This document shows, one piece after another, positions 1 through 32,200 of a stretch of 32,782 nucleotides of DNA. The stretch is from the IMG/VR virus record IMGVR_UViG_2671180643_000012. One strand, given 5' to 3'. Position numbers and translations under genes: made by a program. Origin of the DNA: a virus. Lineage: Duplodnaviria; Heunggongvirae; Uroviricota; Caudoviricetes. The notes under the pieces were generated by a model that saw nothing but the letters and a program-made list of their open reading frames with translations, was not told the DNA's origin and did no database searches. The number at the start of each line of letters is the position of its first letter. The stretch's first letter is position 1.

Positions 1-1362
1 ATGTTTAAACCGGAACTCCTTTCCCCGGCGGGAACGCTGAAAAATATGCGTTACGCTTTCGCTTATGGCGCAGATGCTGTTTATGCGGGCCAGCCGCGTT
101 ATTCCCTGCGTGTGCGCAACAACGAATTCAACCACGAAAATCTTCAGCTCGGCATCAATGAAGCCCACGCGCTGGGGAAAAAGTTTTATGTCGTGGTCAA
201 CATTGCACCGCACAACGCCAAGCTGAAAACCTTTATCCGTGACCTGAAACCGGTGGTGGAAATGGGGCCGGATGCGCTGATTATGTCCGATCCAGGGCTG
301 ATTATGCTGGTGCGTGAGCACTTCCCTGAAATGCCGATCCACCTTTCGGTGCAGGCTAACGCCGTGAACTGGGCGACGGTGAAATTCTGGCAGCAAATGG
401 GCCTGACCCGCGTGATCCTCTCTCGCGAGCTGTCGCTGGAAGAGATTGAAGAGATCCGCAATCAGGTGCCGGATATGGAGATCGAGATCTTCGTTCACGG
501 CGCGCTGTGCATGGCCTACTCCGGTCGCTGCCTGCTCTCTGGCTATATCAACAAGCGCGACCCGAACCAGGGCACCTGCACCAACGCCTGCCGCTGGGAG
601 TACAACGTCCAGGAAGGGAAAGAAGATGATGTTGGCAACATCGTACACAAGTACGAGCCGATTCCGGTGCAAAATGTTGAGCCGACGCTGGGTATCGGCG
701 CACCAACCGACAAAGTGTTTATGATCGAAGAGGCCCAGCGTCCGGGCGAGTATATGACCGCGTTTGAAGATGAGCACGGCACTTACATCATGAACTCGAA
801 AGATCTGCGCGCCATCGCCCATGTAGAACGCCTGACCAAAATGGGCGTGCATTCGCTGAAAATCGAAGGTCGTACCAAATCTTTCTACTATTGTGCACGC
901 ACCGCACAGGTTTACCGCAAAGCTATCGATGACGCCGCTGCGGGAAAACCGTTCGATACCAGCCTGCTGGAAACTCTGGAAGGTCTGGCGCATCGTGGCT
1001 ATACCGAAGGTTTCCTGCGTCGTCATACTCACGACGATTATCAGAACTACGAATACGGTTATTCAGTTTCTGACCGCCAGCAGTTTGTTGGTGAGTTTAC
1101 CGGTGAGCGCAAGGGGGACCTCGCGGCGGTAGCGGTGAAAAATAAATTCTCCGTTGGCGACAGCCTTGAGCTGATGACGCCGCAAGGCAACATTAATTTT
1201 ACCCTTGAGCACATGGAAAACGCCAAAGGCGAAGCTATGCCGATAGCACCAGGCGATGGTTATACTGTGTGGCTCCCGGTCCCGCAGGATCTTGAGCTCA
1301 ATTACGCGCTGCTGATGCGTAATTTCTCCGGGGAAACCACGCGTAATCCCCACGGTAAGTGA
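1..1362 (+). CDS. yegQ: U32-family peptidase-like protein YegQ (TrhP, tRNA hydroxylation-associated); host gene
   Basis: 453-aa ORF starting at window position 1; the translation is recognisable as E. coli YegQ/TrhP (U32 family) from memory. Stop TGA at 1360-1362. Confidence 0.9.
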   Translation: MFKPELLSPAGTLKNMRYAFAYGADAVYAGQPRYSLRVRNNEFNHENLQLGINEAHALGKKFYVVVNIAPHNAKLKTFIRDLKPVVEMGPDALIMSDPGLIMLVREHFPEMPIHLSVQANAVNWATVKFWQQMGLTRVILSRELSLEEIEEIRNQVPDMEIEIFVHGALCMAYSGRCLLSGYINKRDPNQGTCTNACRWEYNVQEGKEDDVGNIVHKYEPIPVQNVEPTLGIGAPTDKVFMIEEAQRPGEYMTAFEDEHGTYIMNSKDLRAIAHVERLTKMGVHSLKIEGRTKSFYYCARTAQVYRKAIDDAAAGKPFDTSLLETLEGLAHRGYTEGFLRRHTHDDYQNYEYGYSVSDRQQFVGEFTGERKGDLAAVAVKNKFSVGDSLELMTPQGNINFTLEHMENAKGEAMPIAPGDGYTVWLPVPQDLELNYALLMRNFSGETTRNPHGK

Positions 1363-1506
1363 TTAATTTCGATTATTTTTCCCGGATGGAAAATTCTTAG
1401 AAACCGATCACATACAGCTGCATTTATTAAGGTTATCATCCGTTTCGCTGAAAAACATAACCCATAAAATGCTAGCTGTACCAGGAACCACCTCCTTAGC
1501 CTGTGT

Positions 1507-1534
1507 AATCTCCCTTACACGGGCTTATTTTTTA
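1507..1534. repeat. ogr-proximal att core (attR): aatctcccttacacgggcttatttttta
   Basis: Exact 28-bp direct repeat of 32280-32307; contains the 27-bp P2 att core as I recall it; lies between the host yegQ and phage ogr. Confidence 0.85.
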
Positions 1535-1593
1535 CGTACAACAAATTGAAATAAAAGGATTTATTTCTGGTCACGTCCACACATTGACCACAT

Positions 1594-1623
1594 CGACAAA
1601 AAAAGCCCCTCGACTGAGGGGCT
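1594..1623 (-). terminator. Rho-independent terminator downstream of ogr (hairpin agcccctc/gaggggct flanked by A-run and T-rich tract)
   Basis: 8-bp GC-rich stem at about 1604-1611/1616-1623 with a 4-nt loop; A7 run on the plus strand immediately 5' gives a U-run on the minus-strand transcript; 'tttctgttt' follows on the plus strand, so it may act in both directions. Confidence 0.5.
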
Positions 1624-1635
1624 TTCTGTTTGTAA

Positions 1636-1854
1636 TTACATCCACATAATTTGCTGCCCTGACGGCAACGGGTGCGGCCTCACGGCGTGGACTTCTCCCG
1701 GCTTCACGATGTATCGCTGTACCGACTCATAAGTGATGAACGTGGCGCTGCAATTCACGTTCTGGCACTGGTGATAACGCTCTTTTGTCGTGTCAGTGAT
1801 ATAGCGGCTTGTACGCGCATGTGCGGCATGCTGGCATAAAGGACAATGAAACAT
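1636..1854 (-). CDS. ogr: Ogr late-gene transcriptional activator (zinc-finger)
   Basis: The 72-aa product MFHCPLCQHAAHARTSRY...QQIMWM matches P2 Ogr with its Cys4 motif; the track ORF 1636..1917 carries a 21-codon upstream extension that I trimmed to the internal Met. Confidence 0.85.
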   Translation of the reverse strand: MFHCPLCQHAAHARTSRYITDTTKERYHQCQNVNCSATFITYESVQRYIVKPGEVHAVRPHPLPSGQQIMWM

Positions 1855-1935
1855 CGCGAGCACCTCTTCCGGTTTTGTTGATGGTGCCATTTTAGTTAAT
1901 TTATCCTTATAAAACAAACAGATAAATAAAACATA

Positions 1936-3592: not shown

Positions 3593-6040
3593 TTAACCGT
3601 CATGCATCATGCTGGCACGGGCGCGCGCACGTTTATCCCGCTCGTATTTTTCGAGCGCATCCTGTAACTGGCGGTCAAGCTGTGTCCCCGGCGCAGTACC
3701 ACCCGTCAGGCTGATGTGATATTCGTTTTTACTCTGGTCCACATAAGAGCGGCCAGCCGGTGCCGTAACCGGCTGATAAGCCTGATAACCTGCATAAGAG
3801 CTGGTCGCCGGAATATAACCACCGGTGCCATACGTGGCGGCATGAGTTCTGGCGGCGGTCTGGTCAAGTGTGTCTGACTCTTTGTTGATAACACCGAGTT
3901 TTTCCAGTACCCAGTCAATACCGCTGCGCAGTTTGTTGAACGCATTAAGCGGCAGCATCAGCGCGTCAGCCAGTGCCTGCCCGAACATGACGCCCGTGTC
4001 ACGGCAACGGTTCAGGGTGTCCTGGGTGGCTTTGACCGGGGCAATCAGGTTTTTAAACCACTGCCACGCGGCCTGTAACTTTTCACCCAGCCAGTTAAAC
4101 AGCGGCTTAAGTGGCGTGAACAGTTCCCCCACCGGCGCAAATGCCGCTTTCAGCCCTTCAACCACACCGCCAAAGAATGCGCTGACAGGCTCCCAGTATT
4201 TACGGATAAGCAACGCCCCGGCGACAATGGCAGCCACCACGGCCACAACCGGCCAGCTAATCGCACTGATGGCCGTCATAACGGCACTACCAACCGTCGT
4301 GAAGATTGCCCCCATTGCGCCTGCTGCCGCGATAATGGCATTAATGCCGGTGATAACCGGCCAGGCTACGAGGCCAATGGCACCGATGACACCAATCAGC
4401 GCCAGTGCACCACCGACAATGATGCCGATGGTTGACGCCAGTGATTTGTTTTTCTGTATCCAGCCGTCGAGTTTTAACACATACTTTGTGGCCGTCTGCG
4501 TGAGCTTACGCAGTGCGCCTTCCTGCTGGTCAAACAGGTCAGTCCCCACCGCCTCATAAGCGGACTGAAACTCCTTAAAGTCACCGCCGAGGTTGTCCTG
4601 CATGATATTTACCAGCTCTGCGGTCTTCCCGTCTGAGGCTTTAAACGCAGCGGTCAGTTTGTCCAGCTTTCCAGTTGAGGCGGCAGTCATCAGCACGGCG
4701 GCGGCTGAGCTGGCCTCCTCCCCGAAAATAGTTTTCATGTATTCAGCCTGCTGGGCAGTACCGAGCCGGTTTTTCTCAAAACTGGCCTGCATTTCTTTCA
4801 GAATGGTAAATACTGGTCGGGTGTTTCCCTTGCTGTCTGAGGTTTTCACACCAAGCTCTTTGAGTGCATCCCATGCTTTTCCCGTCGGTGCCTGCAGGCG
4901 GCTTAACACGGCACGGCTTCCCGTCCCCGCCATTGAACCAGTAATTTTTGCGTCATGCAGCGCCCCGACCATTGCGGCGGTTTCTTCAATGCTGACACCG
5001 GCATTTTTTGCCACTGGTGCGGCATAGGTCAGCGCATCGCTCATACCGTCAAAATCGGCGGCGGTTTTGTTCATCGTCATGGAGAGAACATCCCCGATAT
5101 GAGCGACCTTATCGTTTGAAAGCTGAAAGGCGGATTTCATCCCCATCAACAGGGCGGCGTTTTCTTCCATCGTGCGACGGTTCGCCAGCGCCATATTCAG
5201 CGTGACCGGCGTTGCCGCCTGAATGGCATCAACATTCCCGCCGGCTTTCGCAATGATAATCTGCGCACCGGCTGCATCATCCGCCGAGGCGGCGGTATTA
5301 TCGCCGAGCTGGCGCGCCTGCTTGCGGAGCGCGGCCATTTCGGCGGAGTCTTTTGCCACACCTAGCACGGCCTGCAATTCTGAGTTTTTCTGCGCAAACT
5401 CATAACCGGGCATCAACAGCTTAACACCGGCCATCGTTCCCGCCGCCGCAATCCCCACACCGGCAGCGCCAACTGAGGCCATATTTCCGGCCAGTTCCTT
5501 TCCGGCCTGATAACGCTGTTTGACTGCGTTAAGTTTTGCCTGTTGTGCACTGACACGCGCCAGCGCGTCACGCTGCCGGTTAAGCTGTGCGGTGGTTTCA
5601 CTGATACGGTTTTTCAGTCCCTGCTCATCATGTGCAAGATTGCGGGTATTAATTCCCACAACGGCCAGTTCCCGCTGCTGGCGTTTAACGGAATCCGTCA
5701 GGCGGTTATATTTCGCCTGTAAGTCCTCCGCCGCACGCTTCGCGGATTCCAGCACTTTCGCCTGAGCACGTGTCGGACGTTCGGTGTTTTTAAACTGTGT
5801 GGCAAGGGCTTCGGCCTCCTGCCGTGCCTTTTCAAGTGCATGACCAGTCACGGCGAGCTGTGCACTGGTCTTGCGAAATCCCTCAATACGGGATGCCTGA
5901 CCGTTCAGCTCGCGCAGTGATTTTTGTGTTTCCCGGATATCCCCCGACAGCGATTTGCTCGCTGTGCGGATGGATTTAAACGGGCGGGATGCCTGGTCAA
6001 CAGCCCTGAGCAATACCTGTAATTTTACATTGTTACTCAT
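3593..6040 (-). CDS. T: Tail tape-measure protein T
   Basis: 815 aa, same length as P2 gpT; N-terminal coiled coil, hydrophobic glycine/alanine-rich middle and C-terminal region typical of tape-measure proteins. Confidence 0.9.
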   Translation of the reverse strand: MSNNVKLQVLLRAVDQASRPFKSIRTASKSLSGDIRETQKSLRELNGQASRIEGFRKTSAQLAVTGHALEKARQEAEALATQFKNTERPTRAQAKVLESAKRAAEDLQAKYNRLTDSVKRQQRELAVVGINTRNLAHDEQGLKNRISETTAQLNRQRDALARVSAQQAKLNAVKQRYQAGKELAGNMASVGAAGVGIAAAGTMAGVKLLMPGYEFAQKNSELQAVLGVAKDSAEMAALRKQARQLGDNTAASADDAAGAQIIIAKAGGNVDAIQAATPVTLNMALANRRTMEENAALLMGMKSAFQLSNDKVAHIGDVLSMTMNKTAADFDGMSDALTYAAPVAKNAGVSIEETAAMVGALHDAKITGSMAGTGSRAVLSRLQAPTGKAWDALKELGVKTSDSKGNTRPVFTILKEMQASFEKNRLGTAQQAEYMKTIFGEEASSAAAVLMTAASTGKLDKLTAAFKASDGKTAELVNIMQDNLGGDFKEFQSAYEAVGTDLFDQQEGALRKLTQTATKYVLKLDGWIQKNKSLASTIGIIVGGALALIGVIGAIGLVAWPVITGINAIIAAAGAMGAIFTTVGSAVMTAISAISWPVVAVVAAIVAGALLIRKYWEPVSAFFGGVVEGLKAAFAPVGELFTPLKPLFNWLGEKLQAAWQWFKNLIAPVKATQDTLNRCRDTGVMFGQALADALMLPLNAFNKLRSGIDWVLEKLGVINKESDTLDQTAARTHAATYGTGGYIPATSSYAGYQAYQPVTAPAGRSYVDQSKNEYHISLTGGTAPGTQLDRQLQDALEKYERDKRARARASMMHDG

Positions 6041-7047: not shown

Positions 7048-8238
7048 TTAATTGCTGTTAACCGAGGTGACCAGATTTGCCAGGTATTTATCGGTAATAC
7101 GCTGGCGCAGGGTCAGGTTTTCAAGAGGAGGCACCGGTGTATAGTCGTAGTCGATATACAGTTTTCCGGCCTTGAGGGTTTCCGCATCGTTGGATTCTTC
7201 GCTGAACCAGCAGGTCGCATCCACGATATAGCCGTTTGTTTTCAGCTCACGGAATTTGGCATTAATGCCGTCAACGATGTCGCGAATCAGCGTTGCGGTG
7301 ATAGGCTTGTCCACCGCCCACATGTGCGCTTCAGCCATCGTGTCGGCCAGCACCTGCGCGGTGCGGGTGTAGTTTTCAAAGAGGAACAGCGGGTCATCAG
7401 AGCAGGTACGGTTACCCCAGAAGCGGAAACCGTCACGGCGAATCAGCGTTGTGACACCTGACTCGTTCAACAGGTCAGCATCGGTGCCGGACTCCTGCAA
7501 ATCCCAGAATACAGAGGCACTGATGCCGGTAACACCGTTTACCCCGACGTTGGACAGCGTTTTATGCCAGCCCTGCTCCTGGTCGATTTTAGCGCGCAGA
7601 CCCAGTGCACGGGCGGTGGCATACGCGGTGGTGGTGGTACTGGTGACCGTATCCCATGCGAGGAAATCCGGCCAGATGACCATCAGCTCACGCTGGCTGA
7701 AATTCTGGCGGTAGGCTTTCACCTCGGAAATAGTTTTACAGCCCCATGCGCTGATATACCCGAAAGCGCGCAGCTTCTGACAGACTGATGCCAGTGCAAC
7801 AGCCACCTCTTTGGTGTCCAGTCCCGGCACGCCGAGAATACGCGGTTTAACACCAGTTACCGACTCCGCCGCCAGCAGGGCTTTCAGTCCGGTGTACTGA
7901 CCGTTTTCGTCGGTGGTGCCGATGATATTGGAAACGGTCTGCGCGAGTTTCGTTTCCTCGTCGTCGCCGGTGCCGTCTTCCACACGCACGACAACGGTGA
8001 CCGGTTTTGACTGGTCGGCGATAGCCTGCAACGATGCCGCCAGCGTGCCTTTTTCACCGGCCTTTGCAATTGCGCTCTGCACATTGGTAATCAGCACCGG
8101 TTTATTGAGGGGGAAGGTTTCCGCATCCGCATCGCTGGCCGTGCAGACCATGCCAACAATGGCAGTGGATACGGTGGAAATGACGCGGGTGCCGTCGTTA
8201 ATCTCCAGCACCTGCACGCCGTGATGATAGTCACTCAT
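7048..8238 (-). CDS. FI: Contractile tail sheath protein FI
   Basis: 396 aa, same length and position as P2 gpFI. Confidence 0.9.
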   Translation of the reverse strand: MSDYHHGVQVLEINDGTRVISTVSTAIVGMVCTASDADAETFPLNKPVLITNVQSAIAKAGEKGTLAASLQAIADQSKPVTVVVRVEDGTGDDEETKLAQTVSNIIGTTDENGQYTGLKALLAAESVTGVKPRILGVPGLDTKEVAVALASVCQKLRAFGYISAWGCKTISEVKAYRQNFSQRELMVIWPDFLAWDTVTSTTTTAYATARALGLRAKIDQEQGWHKTLSNVGVNGVTGISASVFWDLQESGTDADLLNESGVTTLIRRDGFRFWGNRTCSDDPLFLFENYTRTAQVLADTMAEAHMWAVDKPITATLIRDIVDGINAKFRELKTNGYIVDATCWFSEESNDAETLKAGKLYIDYDYTPVPPLENLTLRQRITDKYLANLVTSVNSN

Positions 8239-8297
8239 CCGTTTAACTCCGTGGTTAATGGGTGAGTGGTATTTTCAGTTGTGCCGGAGATGTCAGG

Positions 8298-8891
8298 CTA
8301 TTTGTCCCGGTTGGCTAAGGGATGACACAATTTATTCTTTGTCGCTGATGAGGGGAATTTTTTATAGAGCGTGGACAGACCAATATCAAAAATCAGCGCC
8401 ACACGTTGACGAGATTCCCCCGCAGCCAGCAACCGTCCGACCTGCTCCCACTCACCCGCAGTGAGTTTCGGTCGTCTGCCACCAATACGACCTTTGGCTC
8501 TGGCCGCTTCCAGTCCGGCGCGTGTCCGCTCGACAATGAGTTCTCGCTCCATTTCAGCCAGGGCACCCATCACATGAAAGAAAAAACGCCCCATCGGCGT
8601 GCTGGTATCAATAGCATCCGTCAGGCTGCGAAAATTAACGCCGCGTTCGCGCAGTTCCTCAACCAGAATGACCAGATGCCGCATACTACGCCCCAGCCTG
8701 TCCAGCTTCCAGACCACCAGAGTGTCACCTGCTGATAATGTTCTGAGCAGTTTTTTCAGTCCCGGCCTGTCGGACTTCGTGCCGCTGATTTTATCCTCAA
8801 AAATCAGCTCACATCCTGCACACTCCAGCGCGTTACGCTGCAATTCCGTGTTCTGGTCATTTGTTGACACGCGTACATAGCCAATAAGCAT
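8298..8891 (-). CDS. Serine recombinase, DNA invertase of the Gin/Hin/Pin/Cin family (tail-fibre invertase)
   Basis: 197 aa; N-terminal MLIGYVRVSTNDQ with the catalytic serine context, conserved resolvase/invertase motifs (LVVWKLDRLGRS) and a C-terminal helix-turn-helix region; sits directly beside the invertible tail-fibre segment. Confidence 0.85.
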   Translation of the reverse strand: MLIGYVRVSTNDQNTELQRNALECAGCELIFEDKISGTKSDRPGLKKLLRTLSAGDTLVVWKLDRLGRSMRHLVILVEELRERGVNFRSLTDAIDTSTPMGRFFFHVMGALAEMERELIVERTRAGLEAARAKGRIGGRRPKLTAGEWEQVGRLLAAGESRQRVALIFDIGLSTLYKKFPSSATKNKLCHPLANRDK

Positions 8892-8946
8892 GATTATCCC
8901 CCTGAATAAAAACCGGGGATGATGCCAGTTAGCTGTTACCTCTGCA

Positions 8947-8972
8947 TTTTCTTAAACGTTGGTTTGGGAGAA
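8947..8972. repeat. gix/hix-like inversion crossover site (left)
   Basis: ttttcttaaacg-tt-ggtttgggagaa: a 26-bp site with imperfect dyad symmetry, similar to the Mu gix site as I recall it. A 13-bp core ttggtttgggaga (8959-8971) recurs in inverted orientation at 10791-10803. Confidence 0.65.
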
Positions 8973-9419
8973 GGTTCTGCATTACCTGTTGGGGTGCCTG
9001 TTCCGTGGCCTTCAGCCACTCCGCCAACAGGCTGGCTGAAATGCAACGGTGCGCCTTTTTCTGCCGAAGAGTATCCGGAACTGGCAAAAGTTTACCCGAC
9101 AAATAAATTGCCTGATTTACGCGGTGAGTTTATTCGTGGCTGGGATGACGGAAGAGGAATAGATACTAGCCGTAGCTTGCTTTCATCACAGGGCGATGCC
9201 ATTCGAAATATAATTGGTGCATTAGTGGATGTCAGGTTTAATACCTATCCTTCTGATTCTGGCGCTTTTACAACCAGCGTCATCGGAGCTGCTTCATCTG
9301 ATTCAATTAACGGTGGTTATGCAAAGCGAGTAACATTCGATGCTTCCAGAGTTGTTCCAACTGCAAACGAAAACCGACCTCGTAACATTGCCTTTAATTA
9401 TATCGTGAGGGCTGCCTGA
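8961..9419 (+). CDS. Alternative tail-fibre C-terminal cassette (Sv'-like), silent in this orientation
   Basis: Open frame through the left crossover site encoding ...GLGE/GSALPVGVPVPW...; it would be fused in frame to the constant part of H after inversion. The ATG at 8919 in the track ORF lies outside the segment and is probably incidental. Stop overlaps the start of the next gene (ATGA at 9416-9421). Confidence 0.6.
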   Translation, partial: GLGEGSALPVGVPVPWPSATPPTGWLKCNGAPFSAEEYPELAKVYPTNKLPDLRGEFIRGWDDGRGIDTSRSLLSSQGDAIRNIIGALVDVRFNTYPSDSGAFTTSVIGAASSDSINGGYAKRVTFDASRVVPTANENRPRNIAFNYIVRAA

Positions 9420-10021
9420 TGAATAAAGCCGTATTAAATAACGAACTCATTGCCATAAAAGCGGGAGACATAACCGTTTATAATTATGATGGTGAAACGC
9501 GGGAATATATTTCCACATCAACTGAATATCTTGCGGTTGGCGTCGGTATCCCGGCATGTTCTTGTTTAGATGCACCAGTTACACATAAAGCTGGTTATGC
9601 AATCTGCCGTTCTGCAGATTTTAACTCATGGGAATATGTGCCAGACCATCGCGGTGAAATCATCTATAGCACCGAAACAGGAGAATCGAAAGAAATCACA
9701 GCTCCGGGTGATTACCCTGAAAATACAACCACTATCGCCCCGTTAACGCCATATGATAAATGGGATGGTGAGAAATGGGTGACGGATACTGAGGCACAGC
9801 ATAGTGCCGCAGTAGACGCGGCAGAAGCACAGCGCCAGTCACTGATTGATGCAGCAATGGCTTCCATTAGTCTGATTCAGCTGAAATTACAGGCCGGACG
9901 GAAGTTGACGCTGGCAGAAACAACCCGACTTAACGCCGTGCTGGATTACATTGACGCGGTGGTGGCAACAGATACCAGCACCGCGCCGGATGTCATCTGG
10001 CCTGAACTACCGGAGGCGTAG
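9419..10021 (+). CDS. Alternative tail-fibre assembly protein (U'-like), partner of the silent cassette
   Basis: 200 aa, translationally coupled to the preceding cassette; C-terminal region has the conserved tail-fibre-assembly ending (DYIDAV...APDVIWPELPEA), mirroring the expressed copy (APDIEWPTPP). Confidence 0.7.
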   Translation: MNKAVLNNELIAIKAGDITVYNYDGETREYISTSTEYLAVGVGIPACSCLDAPVTHKAGYAICRSADFNSWEYVPDHRGEIIYSTETGESKEITAPGDYPENTTTIAPLTPYDKWDGEKWVTDTEAQHSAAVDAAEAQRQSLIDAAMASISLIQLKLQAGRKLTLAETTRLNAVLDYIDAVVATDTSTAPDVIWPELPEA

Positions 10022-10430
10022 GCCATTCAATATCTGGAGCACTGGAAATATCGACCATTTCCAGTGCATCCAGATAATCCAGCCACAAATTATATTGTGC
10101 CAGTTCCTCACCTTTCAGACGACCAATCGCCGCTTTACCAGGCCATTGCTTACTGTTTATGTATTCGTTGACCCGATCAATCAATTGCTGCTTTTCCAGT
10201 TCGGCTGCGGCAATTTGTTCCTCATGAGTTGGCGGTGGAATATCAGCCCAGGCTGGCATTCCATTCACGCTGGAGAGAATTTTCCCCTGCGGCCATACAC
10301 CACCGTATTCCGCTCTTACGGTATCGCTGATTGCAACGGCATCTGATAAATCCCAGCCAGCATCGATATATTCCTGTATTAGGGACTCGGGAAAAAATGA
10401 CAGGTTTGCGGGAGACCATAAAAATTCCAT
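9993..10430 (-). CDS. Tail-fibre assembly protein (functional equivalent of P2 G / Mu U), expressed orientation
   Basis: Follows the H stop by 2 nt; conserved C-terminus. The track ORF starts at an upstream GTG at 10439; I chose the ATG at about 10430. The 3' end overlaps the convergent U'-like gene by about 29 bp. Confidence 0.7.
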   Translation of the reverse strand: MEFLWSPANLSFFPESLIQEYIDAGWDLSDAVAISDTVRAEYGGVWPQGKILSSVNGMPAWADIPPPTHEEQIAAAELEKQQLIDRVNEYINSKQWPGKAAIGRLKGEELAQYNLWLDYLDALEMVDISSAPDIEWPTPPVVQAR

Positions 10431-10432
10431 AA

Positions 10433-11629
10433 TTAACACCCTATTGAATACACCATTACTTCCAGTTGGCTGGATGTATATGTACTGGTTGCAAGAAATG
10501 AAGAAAGATTGTTATTAGATGCACTGACAAACGGACTCGCCGCCACGTTAATGGTGCGGCTTTCAACGTTGGCCCATGACCCAATAACCGTTAATGTGAA
10601 CGGGATTAAATAGTTTGCTGATACTGTAGCCCCTTTAGTACCAGATGCTGCAGGAATAGAGACTTTCTTCCATTGCAGCATCCATTTCTGAGGAAACCGT
10701 ACATATCCTTCATTCAGTTCATTCCTGAATTCAAAACTACCCATATCCGGGATCTGATTCCCCCCTGTGCCCACATCCCGTTTTGCCGCCTCTCCCAAAC
10801 CAAGGTATGCGAGAAGACCAGCTACATCCTTTCCACTCAAATGAGTCAGCGTCTCATCCAGTGGCTGCTTACCTGACAGCGCATTGTTAATGGTGGTACT
10901 GAATTTCGGGTCATTGTTAATGGCTGCGGCAATTTCTTTCAGTGTATCCAGCGTGGCAGGCGCACCGTTAATCAGAGCGGTAATAGCCGCCTGAACAAAC
11001 GCAGTGGTCGCAATCCGCGTGGTGTTATTTCCTGTGGCAGGCGTCGGCGCTTTTGGTTCTCCGGTAAATGTCGGATTATGTTTCTGTGCATACTGGGTAT
11101 GAGGGTCCTGTGCGGCAATGTGTTTTCTCATCTGGTCATCCACATACAGCCTTAATTCCAGGACTTCATCATCCACGTATTTACGGGTCGCCAGTACCAC
11201 CGACGGGTCGATTTTCAGCGTAATAGCTTCGGTATTCGTGACAACCAGAATCATGCGGATAGTCTGGGTACGACCACTTCCTTCCTGCAACTGCGGTTTG
11301 TACGTTTCCGGGCAGTTCGCCACCGCAATGAGTACGCCTTCATCATCATAAAGCCCAATCTCACGGATCCAGAATCCGCCCTCGTTCTCAGGGATGATTT
11401 GCTCCGCAATAATCTGGCTCTGGTTGTTCGGGTCAACACTCAGAAGATTCAGCGGTGCAATGCGTTTCTGATTAATCAGTTTTGTCTGTGCCGGGTCTGG
11501 TGTCGGCAAGACACCATTCGCATCACCAACGGCCATTTGCGTCAGATTCAGCTTACTGCCGAGCATCGTCGCGTTAGCCAGCCGTGCTGCGCCCTGATTA
11601 GTCAGAATGGCGTAGTATTTCACTGTCAT
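10433..11629 (-). CDS. H: Tail fibre protein H (P2-like N-terminal domain; C-terminal about 122 aa encoded inside the invertible segment)
   Basis: 398 aa; N-terminus has P2 gpH-like motifs (GGFWIREIGLYDDEGVLIAVAN, YKPQLQEGSGRTQTIRM); the right crossover site at 10790-10815 lies inside the gene at codons LGLGE. Confidence 0.85.
   Translation of the reverse strand: MTVKYYAILTNQGAARLANATMLGSKLNLTQMAVGDANGVLPTPDPAQTKLINQKRIAPLNLLSVDPNNQSQIIAEQIIPENEGGFWIREIGLYDDEGVLIAVANCPETYKPQLQEGSGRTQTIRMILVVTNTEAITLKIDPSVVLATRKYVDDEVLELRLYVDDQMRKHIAAQDPHTQYAQKHNPTFTGEPKAPTPATGNNTTRIATTAFVQAAITALINGAPATLDTLKEIAAAINNDPKFSTTINNALSGKQPLDETLTHLSGKDVAGLLAYLGLGEAAKRDVGTGGNQIPDMGSFEFRNELNEGYVRFPQKWMLQWKKVSIPAASGTKGATVSANYLIPFTLTVIGSWANVESRTINVAASPFVSASNNNLSSFLATSTYTSSQLEVMVYSIGC
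10790..10815. repeat. gix/hix-like inversion crossover site (right), inside gene H
   Basis: The reverse complement reads ttctcgcatacc-tt-ggtttgggagag, matching the left site at the core and right half. Confidence 0.65.
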
Positions 11630-12237
11630 GCGTTTACTCTCAGGTTATCAATTAAATGAATGGCCGAGGCCGGGAAATAATCCCCTCCGACAATAATGGC
11701 CTCCGGGGTGTAGGGATAAACCGTCAGGGCGTCACCGTGATAGCATCCCGCACCGGCAAAAATGTTGCCGGTTGTACTTAAGCTGATAGCCAGTCCCGTC
11801 AGATGGCGGCTCGCCGGTTTTGCATCAGCAACGAGGCGCTCCAGCTCCTGATACATTTCCTCGGTAATACCCTGCTCAAGCACGCCAACAACGATGCGGA
11901 ACGTCCCCGGCTCCTCGTTGAGCTGCCACCACTCCCTCACCTCAATCAGATATCCGAGCGGCTCCACCACACGCCGGATTGCGCCTATAGTGCCCTTATG
12001 GCAGTGAATGAAATACGCATCGCGGATAACAGCGCGTTTTGTCGCTTCCGGCCATTTATCATCCCAGCGGTCAACCGAAAATGACCACGCCAGCCACGGC
12101 AGCAGATTTGCCGGGCAGGTGTCCGGGTTCCACAGCTCACGAATACTGACCGGCGTTTTTTCAATTTCCGCACAGGCTTTTGCGGCGGCGACTTCAAGCG
12201 GTGATGAGCCAGTCGGCAGCAGTCGCGAATCACTCAT
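11626..12237 (-). CDS. I: Baseplate assembly protein I
   Basis: 203 aa immediately upstream of H with a 4-nt overlap; P2 gpI-like position and sequence. Confidence 0.8.
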   Translation of the reverse strand: MSDSRLLPTGSSPLEVAAAKACAEIEKTPVSIRELWNPDTCPANLLPWLAWSFSVDRWDDKWPEATKRAVIRDAYFIHCHKGTIGAIRRVVEPLGYLIEVREWWQLNEEPGTFRIVVGVLEQGITEEMYQELERLVADAKPASRHLTGLAISLSTTGNIFAGAGCYHGDALTVYPYTPEAIIVGGDYFPASAIHLIDNLRVNA

Positions 12238-23886: not shown

Positions 23887-26106
23887 ATGGAACTTAAATT
23901 AAAGAATATAACCAGCTATAAGAAAGATAGCTTCACGACTCTTAATCTCTCAAAAAAAATTAATATACTTTATGGTCACAACGGTTGTGGAAAATCAACC
24001 ATATCTAATTATTTCTATAATCCAAATAACACGGACTACAAAGAATGTGAATGTCCTTTCATAGATACTTTTCGCCTATTGGTTTATAATACTAAGTTTG
24101 TTGAGGATAATTTTTATAATGCAAAAGAGCAAAAAGGAGTATTCACTTTAAGTAAGGAAAATGCTGACATTGAAAAAGAATTGTTGGAAAAAGAAGCTAT
24201 AAGACAAGACCTACTTACAAAATACAAAGATAAAAAAAACGTTATTGAGCGTTTAATTAAAGATAAAAACAATAAAGAAAATGAATATATTGATTTAATA
24301 TGGAATAAAGCAGAACCTTTTAGATCATCTGACTTAAAGAACTTGATGAAAGGTCAGTTAGGAAGCAAGAGATCATTTTATGAGCAAGTTAAAAAAGCCC
24401 CTCAAACCACTGACGTTAACATCGAGTCACTTGCTCAAGAATATAGTATTCTTTTAAAGAACAAAGATAAATTCACTGCATCAATTACACCTTTAGAAAA
24501 ATATATCATTTCAGAAAAAGATAAAGAATCTTTATCCACTCCGATTATAGACTCAAGTAATAGCTATTTGTCAGAAACAATTAAACAACTTCAAAACCTT
24601 GACTGGGTGAAAAAAGGGAAGGAATTATATTTAAATGGCACATGTTGCCCATTCTGCCAAGAAGACACTATTAAAGACAAATTTTTAGAAGCAATTGAAT
24701 CTATCTTTGATGATAGCTACTCCAAGAAAGTTGACCAAATACGCATTATCAGATCGTCTTATGAATCCGCTACCATAGATAATTTAAGAAAAATAAAACA
24801 AGAGATTTCATCTTGTGAATTAATCACCTCAAAAGAAAAAGATATAACATCATCTCATATAGCGTTATTAGAGGAAATAGCAAACAAAAACTTAAAATTG
24901 ATGTTAGATAAAATCAATAACCCATCTATATCTATTATTTTGGAATCCAATAGCGACCTTGAAGCAAAGGTAGTTGATAATATAGCAGAGTACAACAATA
25001 GAATTAAAGAAATAAATATTAAAGTCAAACAATTTAAGGATAGTGAAAAGTCTATACGTTACAAAATATGGGGAGCAATAAGAGAATTATGCAACGCTGA
25101 GTTTGAAGCTTTCTCAAAATATGAGAATGACTATAAAATCATTTATGAACAATATCAACTTGAATTAAATACCATAAAAGAACAAGGAGATAACAATAGC
25201 AAAAAGATCAAAGAGCTACGCGATCAAATATCTAACATTGATGCAACCATAGATTCTATAAATCAACGTCTAAAATTATTAGGAATTTATGGTTTTAGCA
25301 TAAAAAAACACACTGAGAGCAATGATAAATATATTATATCACGTTCTGAAAACACAACAGATAAAGATGTATACAGATCTCTTAGCGAGGGTGAAAAAAC
25401 TTTAATTACCTTTCTCTACTTTCTGGAATGCTGTAAAGGTAAGACAGATAAGAATGATACGGATATGCGAGATGTATTTATCGTTATTGATGATCCAATA
25501 TCCAGCCTCTCTCAAAATTATGTGTACGATATTGCTTCAATAATTCACCATGAAATAATCAACAATAACAAAGCAGTAAAGAAAACATTAATACTCACAC
25601 ATAACCTTTATTTCTTTCATGAACTTATCAAATTAGCTCCTAGAAGCAAAGAAGATAGAACATTCAAGCGTGATTATTATCTTGGACGAGTAACAAAAAA
25701 TGAATATAGCATAATTACAGAAATAGAGAAAAAGAGCATTCAGAATGAATACCAGTCCCTATGGCAAGTATTAAAAGATGCGAAGGATGGAAGGGTAAAT
25801 AAAGTTATAATACCTAACATCATGAGAAATATACTGGAATACTACTTCGCATTTGTTCATAGAACGGATGCATTACAGACAGAGTTAAATAAACTTGCTA
25901 GCGATGATAAGAATAATGATTTTAGAGCATTTTATAGATACATTAATAGAGGTTCCCATTCAGATGCAGTTAATATCACAGACATGGGAGATATATCTCC
26001 AGAGAAATATATGGAGCAACTAAAAACCATTTTTCGTATGACTGGTGATGAAAAACATTATTTGAAAATGATGGACGAAGAGGAAGAGGAAACCGTTACC
26101 GCTTAG
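23887..26106 (+). CDS. Candidate anti-phage defence protein: ABC/SMC-type ATPase with CxxC coiled-coil insert and C-terminal putative nuclease region (PrrC/RloC-like architecture)
   Basis: 739 aa. Walker A GHNGCGKST near the N-terminus, then VFTLSKEN; K/E-rich coiled coil with central CCPFCQ; ABC-signature-like LSEGEK; Walker B VFIVIDDPISSLS; LILTHN; C-terminal about 190 aa with R-x3-E (MRNILEYY) and a His about 40 residues later (NRGSHSD). Strongly AT-rich with many ATA/AAA/AAT codons, unlike the flanking phage genes; occupies the P2 tin/old cargo position. Confidence 0.6.
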   Translation: MELKLKNITSYKKDSFTTLNLSKKINILYGHNGCGKSTISNYFYNPNNTDYKECECPFIDTFRLLVYNTKFVEDNFYNAKEQKGVFTLSKENADIEKELLEKEAIRQDLLTKYKDKKNVIERLIKDKNNKENEYIDLIWNKAEPFRSSDLKNLMKGQLGSKRSFYEQVKKAPQTTDVNIESLAQEYSILLKNKDKFTASITPLEKYIISEKDKESLSTPIIDSSNSYLSETIKQLQNLDWVKKGKELYLNGTCCPFCQEDTIKDKFLEAIESIFDDSYSKKVDQIRIIRSSYESATIDNLRKIKQEISSCELITSKEKDITSSHIALLEEIANKNLKLMLDKINNPSISIILESNSDLEAKVVDNIAEYNNRIKEINIKVKQFKDSEKSIRYKIWGAIRELCNAEFEAFSKYENDYKIIYEQYQLELNTIKEQGDNNSKKIKELRDQISNIDATIDSINQRLKLLGIYGFSIKKHTESNDKYIISRSENTTDKDVYRSLSEGEKTLITFLYFLECCKGKTDKNDTDMRDVFIVIDDPISSLSQNYVYDIASIIHHEIINNNKAVKKTLILTHNLYFFHELIKLAPRSKEDRTFKRDYYLGRVTKNEYSIITEIEKKSIQNEYQSLWQVLKDAKDGRVNKVIIPNIMRNILEYYFAFVHRTDALQTELNKLASDDKNNDFRAFYRYINRGSHSDAVNITDMGDISPEKYMEQLKTIFRMTGDEKHYLKMMDEEEEETVTA

Positions 26107-31186: not shown

Positions 31187-32200
31187 ATGGCAATCAAAAA
31201 ACTCGATGATGGTCGATATGAAGTGGACATCCGCCCTACTGGACGTAACGGAAAACGCATCCGTAGGAAGTTTGATAAGAAAAGCGAAGCTGTCGCTTTC
31301 GAAAAATACACGTTGTACAACCACCACAATAAAGAATGGCTATCAAAACCAACAGACAAACGACGTCTGTCGGAACTGACACAGATCTGGTGGGATTTAA
31401 AGGGTAAACACGAAGAGCATGGGAAATCTAATCTTGGAAAAATTGAAATCTTCACAAAAATAACGAATGACCCATGCGCATTTCAAATCACGAAATCCCT
31501 TATCAGCCAGTACTGCGCCACCCGAAGAAGTCAGGGTATTAAACCTTCGAGTATCAATCGTGATTTAACATGTATTAGCGGCATGTTTACAGCCCTGATT
31601 GAAGCGGAGTTATTCTTTGGTGAGCACCCTATCAGAGGGACAAAGAGGCTTAAGGAGGAAAAACCAGAAACAGGCTATCTCACACAGGAAGAAATTGCCT
31701 TACTGCTTGCAGCACTTGACGGCGACAATAAAAAGATTGCGATTCTTTGCCTGAGTACAGGAGCACGTTGGGGAGAAGCAGCTCGTTTGAAAGCAGAAAA
31801 TATCATCCATAACCGCGTCACGTTTGTTAAAACGAAAACAAACAAACCACGCACCGTCCCGATCTCAGAGGCTGTTGCCAAAATGATCGCGGATAACAAA
31901 CGAGGTTTTTTATTCCCTGATGCTGATTACCCTCGCTTCAGACGAACAATGAAAGCAATAAAACCGGATTTGCCAACGGGGCAAGCCACACATGCACTAA
32001 GGCACAGCTTTGCCACTCATTTCATGATTAATGGAGGAAGTATTATCACACTACAACGGATACTAGGTCACACGCGGATTGAGCAAACTATGGTTTACGC
32101 TCATTTTGCGCCAGAGTACCTTCAGGACGCCATTTCTCTTAATCCGCTAAGAGGTGGTACTGAAGCCGAGAGTGTCCACACAGTGTCCACAGTAGAGTAA
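31187..32200 (+). CDS. int: Tyrosine integrase
   Basis: 337 aa, P2 Int length; C-terminal catalytic motifs (HALRHSFATH ... LGHTRIEQTMVYAHF) with the tyrosine nucleophile; next to the att core. Confidence 0.9.
   Translation: MAIKKLDDGRYEVDIRPTGRNGKRIRRKFDKKSEAVAFEKYTLYNHHNKEWLSKPTDKRRLSELTQIWWDLKGKHEEHGKSNLGKIEIFTKITNDPCAFQITKSLISQYCATRRSQGIKPSSINRDLTCISGMFTALIEAELFFGEHPIRGTKRLKEEKPETGYLTQEEIALLLAALDGDNKKIAILCLSTGARWGEAARLKAENIIHNRVTFVKTKTNKPRTVPISEAVAKMIADNKRGFLFPDADYPRFRRTMKAIKPDLPTGQATHALRHSFATHFMINGGSIITLQRILGHTRIEQTMVYAHFAPEYLQDAISLNPLRGGTEAESVHTVSTVE

Follow-up and report, generated by a model that had tools for sequence, protein, structure and literature searches.

A highly probable Din-family inversion switch of tail-fibre tips and assembly chaperones in a P2-like Escherichia coli prophage

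Between the tail genes H and FI of a P2-like prophage of Escherichia coli, two sets of fibre-tip and assembly genes face each other inside a pair of inverted repeats, and this raises the question of whether the interval is a site-specific inversion switch that determines which fibre the phage carries or a static arrangement in which one gene set is a passenger. The anatomy of the locus, the fit of its reading frames, the families of its five proteins, the homology of its sites and enhancer, and exact inversion in relatives are observed, and we consider that the locus is very probably a Din-family switch occupying the slot between H and FI. The observation made in the earlier note on this DNA is confirmed and its interpretation is supported. 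Knowledge of Din-type fibre switches goes back to the 1980s and to Mu, P1, e14 and p15B. This kind of system is already annotated in phage records, for example that of pro483, and experiments have demonstrated it in P2-like prophages (PMC4272514).

The window, by which we mean the whole 32,782-bp stretch of DNA analysed, carries the Pfam domains GPD, sheath, Tail_P2_I, Phage_GPA and integrase, placing it in the P2-like group (Peduoviridae), and its tail module has the gene order D-U-T-E-FII-FI / I-J-W-V, equal to that of RefSeq-annotated relatives and of P2. Comparison with P2 (NC_001895) shows the same flanking tail and baseplate modules, and ~100 bp of the pF promoter region upstream of FI match P2 almost exactly. 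P2, however, lacks an invertase and has H and G in fixed form, with fun(Z) before FI, whereas in the window an invertase fills the slot before FI and a split H with invertible cassettes replaces H and G. The C-terminus of this invertase is 13 residues longer than in e14 and runs into the P2 pF promoter DNA. An invertase with inverted neighbouring genes has been noted before at the Z/fun hotspot of P2 (preprint 10.1101/2024.10.15.618418). The features of the locus are the following.

8298-8891, minus strand: gene for a 197-aa DNA invertase of the Din family (Gin/Cin/Pin/Hin), a small serine recombinase
8802-8873, minus strand: predicted Fis-dependent recombinational enhancer, nt 19-90 of the invertase open reading frame
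8911-8930, minus strand: terminator-like hairpin between crossover site and invertase start, from a consensus scan only
8947-8972, no strand: invertase-proximal 26-bp crossover site, TTTTCTTAAACG-TT-GGTTTGGGAGAA, central dinucleotide at 8959-8960
8959-10803, no strand: invertible segment, 1,845 bp between the central dinucleotides, inclusive
8961-9419, plus strand: silent fibre-tip cassette B, GLGE and 148 residues, tail-collar domain, stop at 9417-9419
9419-10021, plus strand: silent tail-fibre assembly chaperone B, 200 aa, TfaE-like, Pfam Caudo_TAP (E 2e-31)
9993-10430, minus strand: currently expressed tail-fibre assembly chaperone A, 145 aa, Pfam Caudo_TAP (E 3e-31)
10433-10801, minus strand: currently expressed fibre-tip cassette A, H residues 277-398, GLGE and 118 residues
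10790-10815, no strand: H-proximal 26-bp crossover site, CTCTCCCAAACC-AA-GGTATGCGAGAA, central dinucleotide at 10802-10803, within H codon Leu276
10802-11629, minus strand: constant part of H (codons 1-276), Pfam Phage_tail_fib N-terminal domain (E 2e-62)

The earlier note had placed a perfect 13-bp inverted repeat at 8959-8971 and 10791-10803, inside gix-like sites of 26 bp, and both statements are borne out. A repeat search returned arms at 8947-8971 and 10791-10815 (25 nt, 80% complementary) that contain the perfect core TTGGTTTGGGAGA at 8959-8971 on the plus and 10791-10803 on the minus strand, and both sites fit the Din-site consensus with compatible TT/AA centres. By length alone this repeat is no outlier, the repeat list also holding chance-looking pairs of 24 nt (75%) and 23 nt (74%); its significance comes from the match of the arms to known sites, not from its length. 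The ordinary length and percent identity are what speaks for a chance inverted repeat around static duplicated fibre genes, with the recombinase serving resolution or integration. That explanation is nevertheless already effectively refuted, and we give it a negligible probability: the core, allowing at most one mismatch, occurs twice in the 32,782 bp against 0.04 occurrences expected from shuffles (a count of two was attained in 0 of 100); the Din consensus is matched in the window by these two sites alone; the frame is kept across the crossover; relatives are inverted exactly at these positions; and the prophage has a separate tyrosine integrase at 31187-32200. The consensus scan, with a loose 26-mer allowing up to eight mismatches, covered the whole window and returned only 8947-8972 (six mismatches) and 10790-10815 (three), while arithmetic gives ~0.1-0.2 chance matches at eight mismatches or fewer and ~1e-6 or fewer at three. 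The same pattern recovers the annotated boundaries of the Mu G segment and both e14 sites. The window holds two inverted, imperfectly palindromic sites with identical central dinucleotides (TT/AA), and their 26 bp are the length of Din crossover sites (Johnson and Simon, 1985, as cited in PMC3798978).

The protein encoded next to the segment, on the side of the invertase-proximal site, is a Gin/Pin-type serine invertase. It matches Pfam Resolvase (E 3e-52) together with HTH_7, aligns to the Gin structure (PDB 3uj3, E 1e-93) without gaps across residues 1-182, belongs to PHROG 125 ('DNA invertase') and is 79% identical to Mu Gin, 87% to PinE of e14 and 96% to its counterpart in pro483; NCBIfam returned no specific invertase or fibre family, every match lying under the curated cut-offs. 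The protein has the build of a Din-family recombinase, an N-terminal catalytic domain with the nucleophilic Ser and a C-terminal helix-turn-helix, and retains the catalytic Ser9, the VRVSTND motif and the wild-type Met114, the last of which suggests that its activity depends on an enhancer. The Din enhancer acts in cis, depends on Fis and lies within the invertase gene, in its 5' part (Kahmann, 1985; Johnson and Simon, 1985; both as cited in PMC3798978). In the P1 record an 'enhancer of Cin-mediated C-segment inversion' is annotated at cin nt 19-90, and conservation of the equivalent interval here identifies the putative enhancer by homology. This interval is almost invariant across eight invertase genes, synonymous codon identity being 0.60 over codons 7-30 versus 0.47 over codons 31-180, with peaks at codons 1-12 (0.82) and 25-36 (0.675). 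Two Fis cores tentatively placed here as G-N13-C windows, at nt 22-36 and nt 71-85 of the gene, lie 49 bp apart from centre to centre, against 48 bp in hin; they were set aside in favour of the P1 annotation and the conservation. The hairpin at 8911-8930 possibly ends the late V-W-J-I-H operon. It was rejected as a homologue of the P2 V-operon terminator, its position being equivalent but the homology going no further than the T-run.

Inside the segment lie two convergent cassettes, each consisting of a fibre tip and a chaperone, and the crossover dinucleotide falls within codon Leu276 of H. The reading frames are as the earlier note had stated, with the repeat at the GLGE codons of both H and the silent plus-strand cassette: H reads ...AYLGLGE/AAKRDVG... 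and the cassette ...NVGLGE/GSALPVGVPVPW.... An in-silico flip replaces the present H of 398 aa by an in-frame protein of 428 aa with a collar-type tip, so that the plus-strand cassette can be joined in frame, a point on which the proposal could have failed. The residues of H encoded by the segment are 277-398 (122 aa) in the present orientation and 277-428 (152 aa) once inverted; with GLGE as four residues common to both tips, the net swap is from 118 to 148. The replacement of about 122 by about 148 residues put forward earlier was otherwise right but mixed these two ways of counting, and the exchange of assembly genes that went with it agrees with the presence of a Caudo_TAP chaperone in both cassettes. 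The layout is that of a fibre switch: codons 1-276 of H are outside the segment, the alternative tips and chaperones are inside it, and both tips join in frame. No promoter-like sites were found at the cassette starts by a consensus scan, a type of scan that was uninformative for promoters (8 sites found versus 4.7 expected). The constant part of H is 98-99% identical to H of pro483 and of the OkiPb prophages, whose tips differ, and an exact 29-nt stretch comprising the last 25 positions of the H-proximal site and 4 nt of H-side flank is found with many different tips in 88 metagenome contigs. This constant part, outside the segment, is co-transcribed with the late baseplate operon.

Both cassettes are made up of intact open reading frames. 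Tip B matches Pfam Collar (E 5e-15), PHROG 523 'tail collar fiber protein' (E 3e-72) and the structures of a short tail fibre (PDB 9cuy, E 2e-29) and of T4 gp37 (2xgf, E 4e-15), and is 57% identical to StfE of e14. The start of chaperone B overlaps the stop of tip B (TGATG), and chaperones A and B converge with an overlap of 29 bp, equal to that in e14. Chaperone A is 68% identical to e14 TfaP over its C-terminal 78 aa and has a dN/dS of 0.19 relative to strain H9Ecoli. Tip A matches two PHROG families of tail fibre C-termini, 2557 (E 6e-14) and 1396 (E 3e-8), has no match in Pfam or PDB by sequence search, and occurs in 3 of 5,426 complete E. coli genomes and as the singleton protein cluster WP_261289710.1. 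Its dN/dS of 0.22 indicates that it is under purifying selection, and on these sequence comparisons the expressed tip is the only unusual part of the locus. Tips A and B have no similarity detectable by blastp at E 1e-3 or better, which fits the view that they would bind different receptors. We think it unlikely that the receptor of tip A is one so far assigned to no P2-like or e14-type fibre. The rare tip may be worth a receptor assay for phage therapy or typing.

The locus had been described as a switch of the Mu G or P1 C type placed in a P2 tail module; the class and the setting stand, but the nearest system is another one. Judged by sequence, the closest classical relative is the P segment of e14, the defective prophage of E. 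coli K-12 whose invertase is PinE (Plasterk and van de Putte, 1985, as cited in PMC4272514), because the invertase is nearer to PinE than to Gin (87% versus 79%), chaperone B is 92.5% identical to TfaE and 25 of 26 positions of the invertase-proximal site, read as its reverse complement, agree with the pin-proximal e14 site. Both systems have two convergent cassettes of tip and chaperone with an invertase 54-55 bp beyond one site (the distance from site to ATG is 55 bp here and 54 bp in e14 as well as in Mu), and the segment measures 1,845 bp here against 1,797 bp in e14 (PMC12529663). Whereas e14 is defective, lambdoid and truncated in its fibre gene, the window has a full P2-type H within a complete P2-like prophage, and its tip A is unrelated to the e14 tips. 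Din invertases work in trans, the e14 segment being inverted by PinQ from the Qin prophage (PMC12529663), and deletion of the invertase may therefore not lock the switch. Gene order and sites are also shared with pro483 (KR073661), the 'P2' prophage of O157:H43 T22 (KC618326) and the P2-like prophages of EPEC E2348/69. Tip A, however, is only ~40% identical to the tips of pro483 and of the OkiPb prophages, and this over the first 64-80 residues only, and one of the EPEC prophages carries three sites and comes in four variants (PMC4272514) where the window has two sites. The Mu G and P1 C segments share with the window a constant fibre N-terminus outside, alternative C-termini and chaperones (U/U') inside, 26-bp sites and an enhancer within the invertase gene, at its 5' end. 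They differ in being larger (3.0 kb in Mu, 4.2 kb in P1) and in belonging to another host phage family; the central dinucleotide of gix is TC/GA instead of TT/AA; and in P1 Cin lies on the opposite side of the segment, away from the constant part of the fibre gene. The Mu fibre tips have no similarity to those of the window at E 1e-3 or better, a weak match of U' to chaperone A being the sole match among tips and chaperones in this comparison with the Mu proteins.

That such segments turn over is seen in natural relatives. Among complete E. coli genomes with a near-identical prophage, each covered to at least 80%, 21 are oriented as in the window and 27 are flipped. In three natural pairs of prophages the flanks are identical across 11.6-13.6 kb and exact inversion at the sites is the sole difference bar one SNP: OkiPb01691 and OkiPb01707 (15.5 kb compared) have no flank differences and one SNP within a site, whereas neither strains 12867 and 12089 (13.5 kb) nor the chromosomal and plasmid copies of MS 198-1 (13.5 kb) differ in anything besides the inversion. 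A marker SNP at position 20 of the site travels with the segment in the 12867/12089 pair and so confines the crossover to positions 13-19, and inversion in this pair is not prevented by a mismatch of its inner half-sites. The homologous segments in the inverted pairs measure 1,870 and 1,897 bp. In EPEC E2348/69, PCR and deep sequencing revealed coexisting orientations in two P2-like prophages (Goldberg, 2014, PMC4272514), one of the inversions there spanning ~1,800 bp (PMC4272514).

Whether the copy in the window has kept this ability is a separate matter, and it might instead be a frozen relic, a switch in architecture that no longer inverts through weak sites, low invertase expression or a locked state and in which the plus-strand cassette is a silent passenger. 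The combination of cassettes has been sampled in one orientation only, tip A being joined to H in the window, LR-25 and H9Ecoli, all oriented alike, but this sample is three genomes. Each site of the window is one base off the sites proven in relatives, the H-proximal one having C for T at its first base and the other T for A at position 6; position-1 C, however, also occurs in a functional e14 site, and 12867/12089 inverts despite its half-site mismatch. H has decayed in the nearest relative, LR-25, where it is annotated as a pseudogene, yet in the window the invertase open reading frame is complete, with Ser9 present and a Gin-like sequence all along, the enhancer interval is conserved and the central dinucleotides are compatible. 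The silent tip B and chaperone B, moreover, form 348 uninterrupted codons that are 100% identical to those of another prophage. In our judgement a relic is unlikely, and this exact copy is presumably active now. In exact look-ups among ~15 billion public proteins the predicted flipped H of 428 aa was absent; the native 398-aa H is present in public proteins as a singleton, and the assembly of the isolate with exactly this H, sequenced in run ERR134521, is continuous straight through the segment.

If the switch operates as its relatives do, invertase dimers would bind both 26-bp sites and, together with host Fis at the enhancer within the 5' end of the gene that encodes them, would assemble an invertasome on supercoiled DNA, Fis and supercoiling being presumed requirements. 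Ser9 would then cleave both sites at the central TT/AA dinucleotide, the chemistry expected of this invertase, and after a rotation of one subunit pair by 180 degrees the ends would rejoin with the 1,845-bp segment turned over. The H promoter would remain, with the first 276 codons, outside the segment, so that orientation would set both the C-terminal tip that is fused and the chaperone that follows. As sequenced, the phage would make a 398-aa H from the constant part and tip A, followed by the 145-aa chaperone; inverted, it would make a 428-aa H from the constant part and the collar-type tip B, followed by the TfaE-like chaperone of 200 aa. A population of lysogens could in this way release particles of two receptor specificities, a form of host-range bet-hedging.

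The related e14 segment suggests a further possibility, that the switch mainly serves the lysogen, inversion making or exposing a fibre-derived protein at the cell surface that, for instance, blocks adsorption of other phages. Such a role has been described for StfE2 after PinQ-driven inversion in e14 (PMC12529663), the silent cassette has an ATG of its own (open reading frame 8919-9419, 166 aa), and RefSeq annotates its equivalent as a separate protein. Unlike defective e14, however, this prophage is complete and P2-like, with intact head, tail, lysis and replication genes; a consensus scan found no sigma-70-like promoter upstream of the silent frame; and the classical host-range role explains every feature. 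We regard a mainly lysogenic function as very improbable, and even an additional host-level role, a PinQ/StfE2-like adsorption block with other resident Pin-type invertases acting in trans, would be less likely than a not yet assigned receptor for tip A.

With the host-range switch as the preferred reading, the locus brings no new biology, and its main value lies in correct annotation: H and the opposite-strand 'phage tail protein' fragment represent one gene in two states. When such strains are assembled, the result may show either orientation or break at the sites, and a host-range prediction from a single assembly covers half of the phage's capability. Eight of the 88 metagenome contigs end at the site, which would fit mixed orientations but equally mixed strains, and we gave this no weight. 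A scan of a genome collection for the H-proximal site returned only two contigs, both from one Escherichia isolate. One of them, a contig of 1,860 bp first considered as an 'inversion bubble', was dropped; its 63-bp terminal inverted repeats, which take in the end of the constant part of H on either side, indicate a different arrangement, with a longer repeat or a multi-site shufflon.

Every defining feature of a Din-family inversion system that is open to sequence analysis is present in the window, and a switch of the Gin/Pin invertasome type working by the textbook mechanism is supported. An earlier note had observed the anatomy of an invertible tail-fibre segment here; that observation is confirmed, and its interpretation is supported by the crossover sites, the invertase, the reading frame and inversion in relatives. 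The elements concerned are the following.

1-1362: yegQ/trhP, in the host flank (window 1-1900)
1445-1530: CyaR sRNA (Rfam, 100.7 bits), between yegQ/trhP and ogr
8298-8891, minus strand: DNA invertase, 197 aa, Resolvase and HTH_7 domains
8802-8873, within the invertase gene: enhancer predicted by homology to the P1 cin enhancer
8947-8972: invertase-proximal 26-bp site, TTTTCTTAAACG-TT-GGTTTGGGAGAA
8959-10803: invertible segment, 1,845 bp between central dinucleotides, two convergent cassettes
8961-9419, plus strand: tip B cassette, GLGE and 148 residues, tail-collar domain
9419-10021, plus strand: chaperone B, 200 aa, Caudo_TAP
9993-10430, minus strand: chaperone A, 145 aa, Caudo_TAP
Minus strand, continuing the tail-fibre gene H: tip A cassette, H residues 277-398 (GLGE and 118 residues)
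10790-10815: H-proximal 26-bp site, CTCTCCCAAACC-AA-GGTATGCGAGAA

A complete P2-like prophage of E. coli makes up the window; it is inserted beside yegQ and the CyaR sRNA, and the host flank has 100% identity to E. coli strain L65. Its gene order (D, U, T, E/E', FII, FI, the present feature, I, J, W, V, lysis and head genes, gpA, int) agrees with that of RefSeq-annotated relatives and of P2. The slot ahead of FI, occupied in P2 by fun(Z), here holds the 197-aa serine recombinase. DNA homologous to the pF region of P2, which contains a late promoter and activator site ahead of FI, starts at ~8332, and the last ~11 recombinase codons (8298-8332) run into it; the invertase is longer than the 184-aa PinE because the end of its ORF does so, and the overlap marks where the invertase module ends on its FI side. 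A 739-aa AAA_13 ATPase (23887-26106, plus strand) occupies the P2 tin/old cargo slot, with the head genes on one side and the gpA replicase gene on the other; it is matched by PDC-S06 (E 4e-253), a candidate defence family of PADLOC, and has a weaker PrrC-like match at its C-terminus.

The inverted repeat described in the earlier note is present as the 13-mer TTGGTTTGGGAGA at 8959-8971 and 10791-10803, found exactly twice in the window, once per strand, while dinucleotide shuffling predicts 0.04 matches and gave two copies in 0 of 100 shuffles. A repeat search of the window extends the arms to 25 nt (8947-8971 and 10791-10815; 80% complementary), a length unexceptional by itself given other pairs of 23-24 nt at ~75% identity; the weight of the repeat comes from the known sites that it matches rather than from its length. 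The only matches to a loose Gin/Pin-type crossover-site consensus in the 32.8-kb window are 8947-8972 and 10790-10815, and the same pattern recovers the annotated Mu G-segment boundaries and both e14 sites. The invertase-proximal site lies 55 bp from the invertase ATG, as against 54 bp in Mu and in e14. Between that site and the ATG is a terminator-like hairpin with a T-run (8911-8930, minus strand), without homology to the P2 V-operon terminator; the late V-to-H operon could terminate at this hairpin, which could thus protect the invertase from read-through.

The crossover dinucleotide falls within H codon Leu276, and in-silico inversion of 8959-10803 gives an uninterrupted H of 428 aa in place of the present 398 aa, bearing out the proposal that H could be joined in frame to the plus-strand cassette. 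The segment encodes 122 residues of H now and 152 after inversion, the first four being common to both, so that of the exchange put forward earlier (about 122 residues for about 148) the incoming figure stands and the outgoing one becomes 118. The tip B stop overlaps the chaperone B start, and the genes for chaperones A and B share a 29-bp overlap, as in e14; a promoter scan found no promoter-like site ahead of the tip B cassette. Solved fibre tips (PDB 9cuy, E 2e-29; T4 gp37, E 4e-15) are similar to tip B, which is 57% identical to StfE of e14; chaperone B is 92.5% identical to TfaE.

The invertase aligns without gaps to crystallised Mu Gin (PDB 3uj3, E 1e-93), with identities of 79% to Gin, 87% to e14 PinE and 96% to the pro483 invertase; it retains Ser9 and the wild-type Met114, where crystallised Gin has Val. 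The Cin enhancer is annotated in the P1 record at cin nucleotides 19-90, and the DNA of the corresponding interval (8802-8873) is nearly invariant among eight invertase genes whose proteins are down to 61% identical to that of the window. Among 11 invertase genes, synonymous codon identity is 0.60 in codons 7-30 vs 0.47 in codons 31-180, peaking at codons 1-12 (0.82) and 25-36 (0.675) with a dip to 0.44 between; this is the pattern that would be expected from two protein-binding patches within coding DNA, and as the genes are mutually related it is supporting evidence and not proof.

Inversion is evident in relatives. When window 8250-11700, native and flipped in silico, was searched against complete E. 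coli genomes, 21 genomes had the native and 27 the flipped orientation at coverage of at least 80%. Over 15.5 kb, strains OkiPb01691 and OkiPb01707 differ only by one SNP in a site and an exact 1,870-bp reverse-complement, which lies between the central dinucleotides. Strains 12867 and 12089 likewise differ by nothing but an exact inversion over 13.5 kb. A marker SNP at position 20 of the 26-bp site (the site being 5698-5723 in the 12867 locus L106 and 7566-7591 in the 12089 locus L107) lies on the invertase side of the segment in one of them and on the H side in the other. Since the SNP moves with the segment while the outer half-sites stay in place, exchange occurred within site positions 13-19, consistent with the central dinucleotide; the pair also shows that an inner half-site mismatch is no bar to recombination. 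MS 198-1 carries the same P2-like prophage on its chromosome and on a 66.8-kb plasmid (loci L108 and L109); the 1,897-bp segment is oppositely oriented in these two copies, which are otherwise identical across 13.5 kb. Each window site differs by one base from the sites proven in these natural pairs. An exact 29-nt stretch spanning the H-proximal site and its H-side flank occurs in 88 metagenome contigs, joined to collar-type tips (~44), tip-A-type tips (~24) or others (14), which shows modular use of this junction. A 1,860-bp contig of Escherichia sp. MOD1-EC7003 (L008) ends in 63-bp inverted repeats, both with the site and the end of H-constant (the constant part of H, codons 1-276 in the window), suggesting that this strain has a longer repeat or else a multi-site shufflon.

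Such switches are already known in P2-like phages, from annotations and experiments alike. The annotations of pro483 and of the 'P2' prophage of O157:H43 T22 show an invertase, two fibre fragments and two chaperones; in EPEC E2348/69, deep sequencing and PCR revealed that orientations coexist in two P2-like prophages, including a ~1,800-bp inversion and a three-site, four-variant shufflon (Goldberg et al., 2014; PMC4272514); and the P2 Z/fun hotspot often holds a DNA invertase with adjacent genes inverted (2024 preprint, 10.1101/2024.10.15.618418). The earlier assignment to the Mu G/P1 C type holds as regards the Din family, but among the classical systems the e14 P segment with PinE is the nearest relative. 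Din invertases act in trans, PinQ of Qin inverting the e14 segment (PMC12529663), and therefore deletion of the window invertase alone may not lock the switch in a host with other pin genes.

Only tip A, rare and unclassified, is mildly unusual; together with chaperone A it is present in 3 of 5,426 genomes, in one of them as a degenerate copy that takes the invertase-proximal place in an e14-like element. That element, in E. coli 5735 (L097, 1510-4872), is an invertible segment beside a Pin-type recombinase, with a 401-aa acyltransferase gene between chaperone-gene fragments. Native H forms a singleton cluster (WP_261289710.1) in a 15-billion-protein collection, which does not contain the predicted flipped H, and the isolate assembly with this exact H (ERR134521) spans the segment without a break, oriented as in the window; for this copy, therefore, inversion is something we infer rather than see. 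Relative to the diverged H9Ecoli copy (L098), dN/dS is 0.22 for tip A and 0.19 for chaperone A, with 0.06-0.10 for the invertase and H-constant. Tip B and chaperone B (window 8973-10021) are 100% identical to H9Ecoli whereas tip A has only 84% nucleotide identity, indicating recombination of whole cassettes; this identity and the dN/dS values argue against decay. In LR-25 (L003, 5477-6380), the nearest relative at 98.3% identity over the region, H is annotated in RefSeq as two pseudogene fragments, the fibre gene being broken in that strain.
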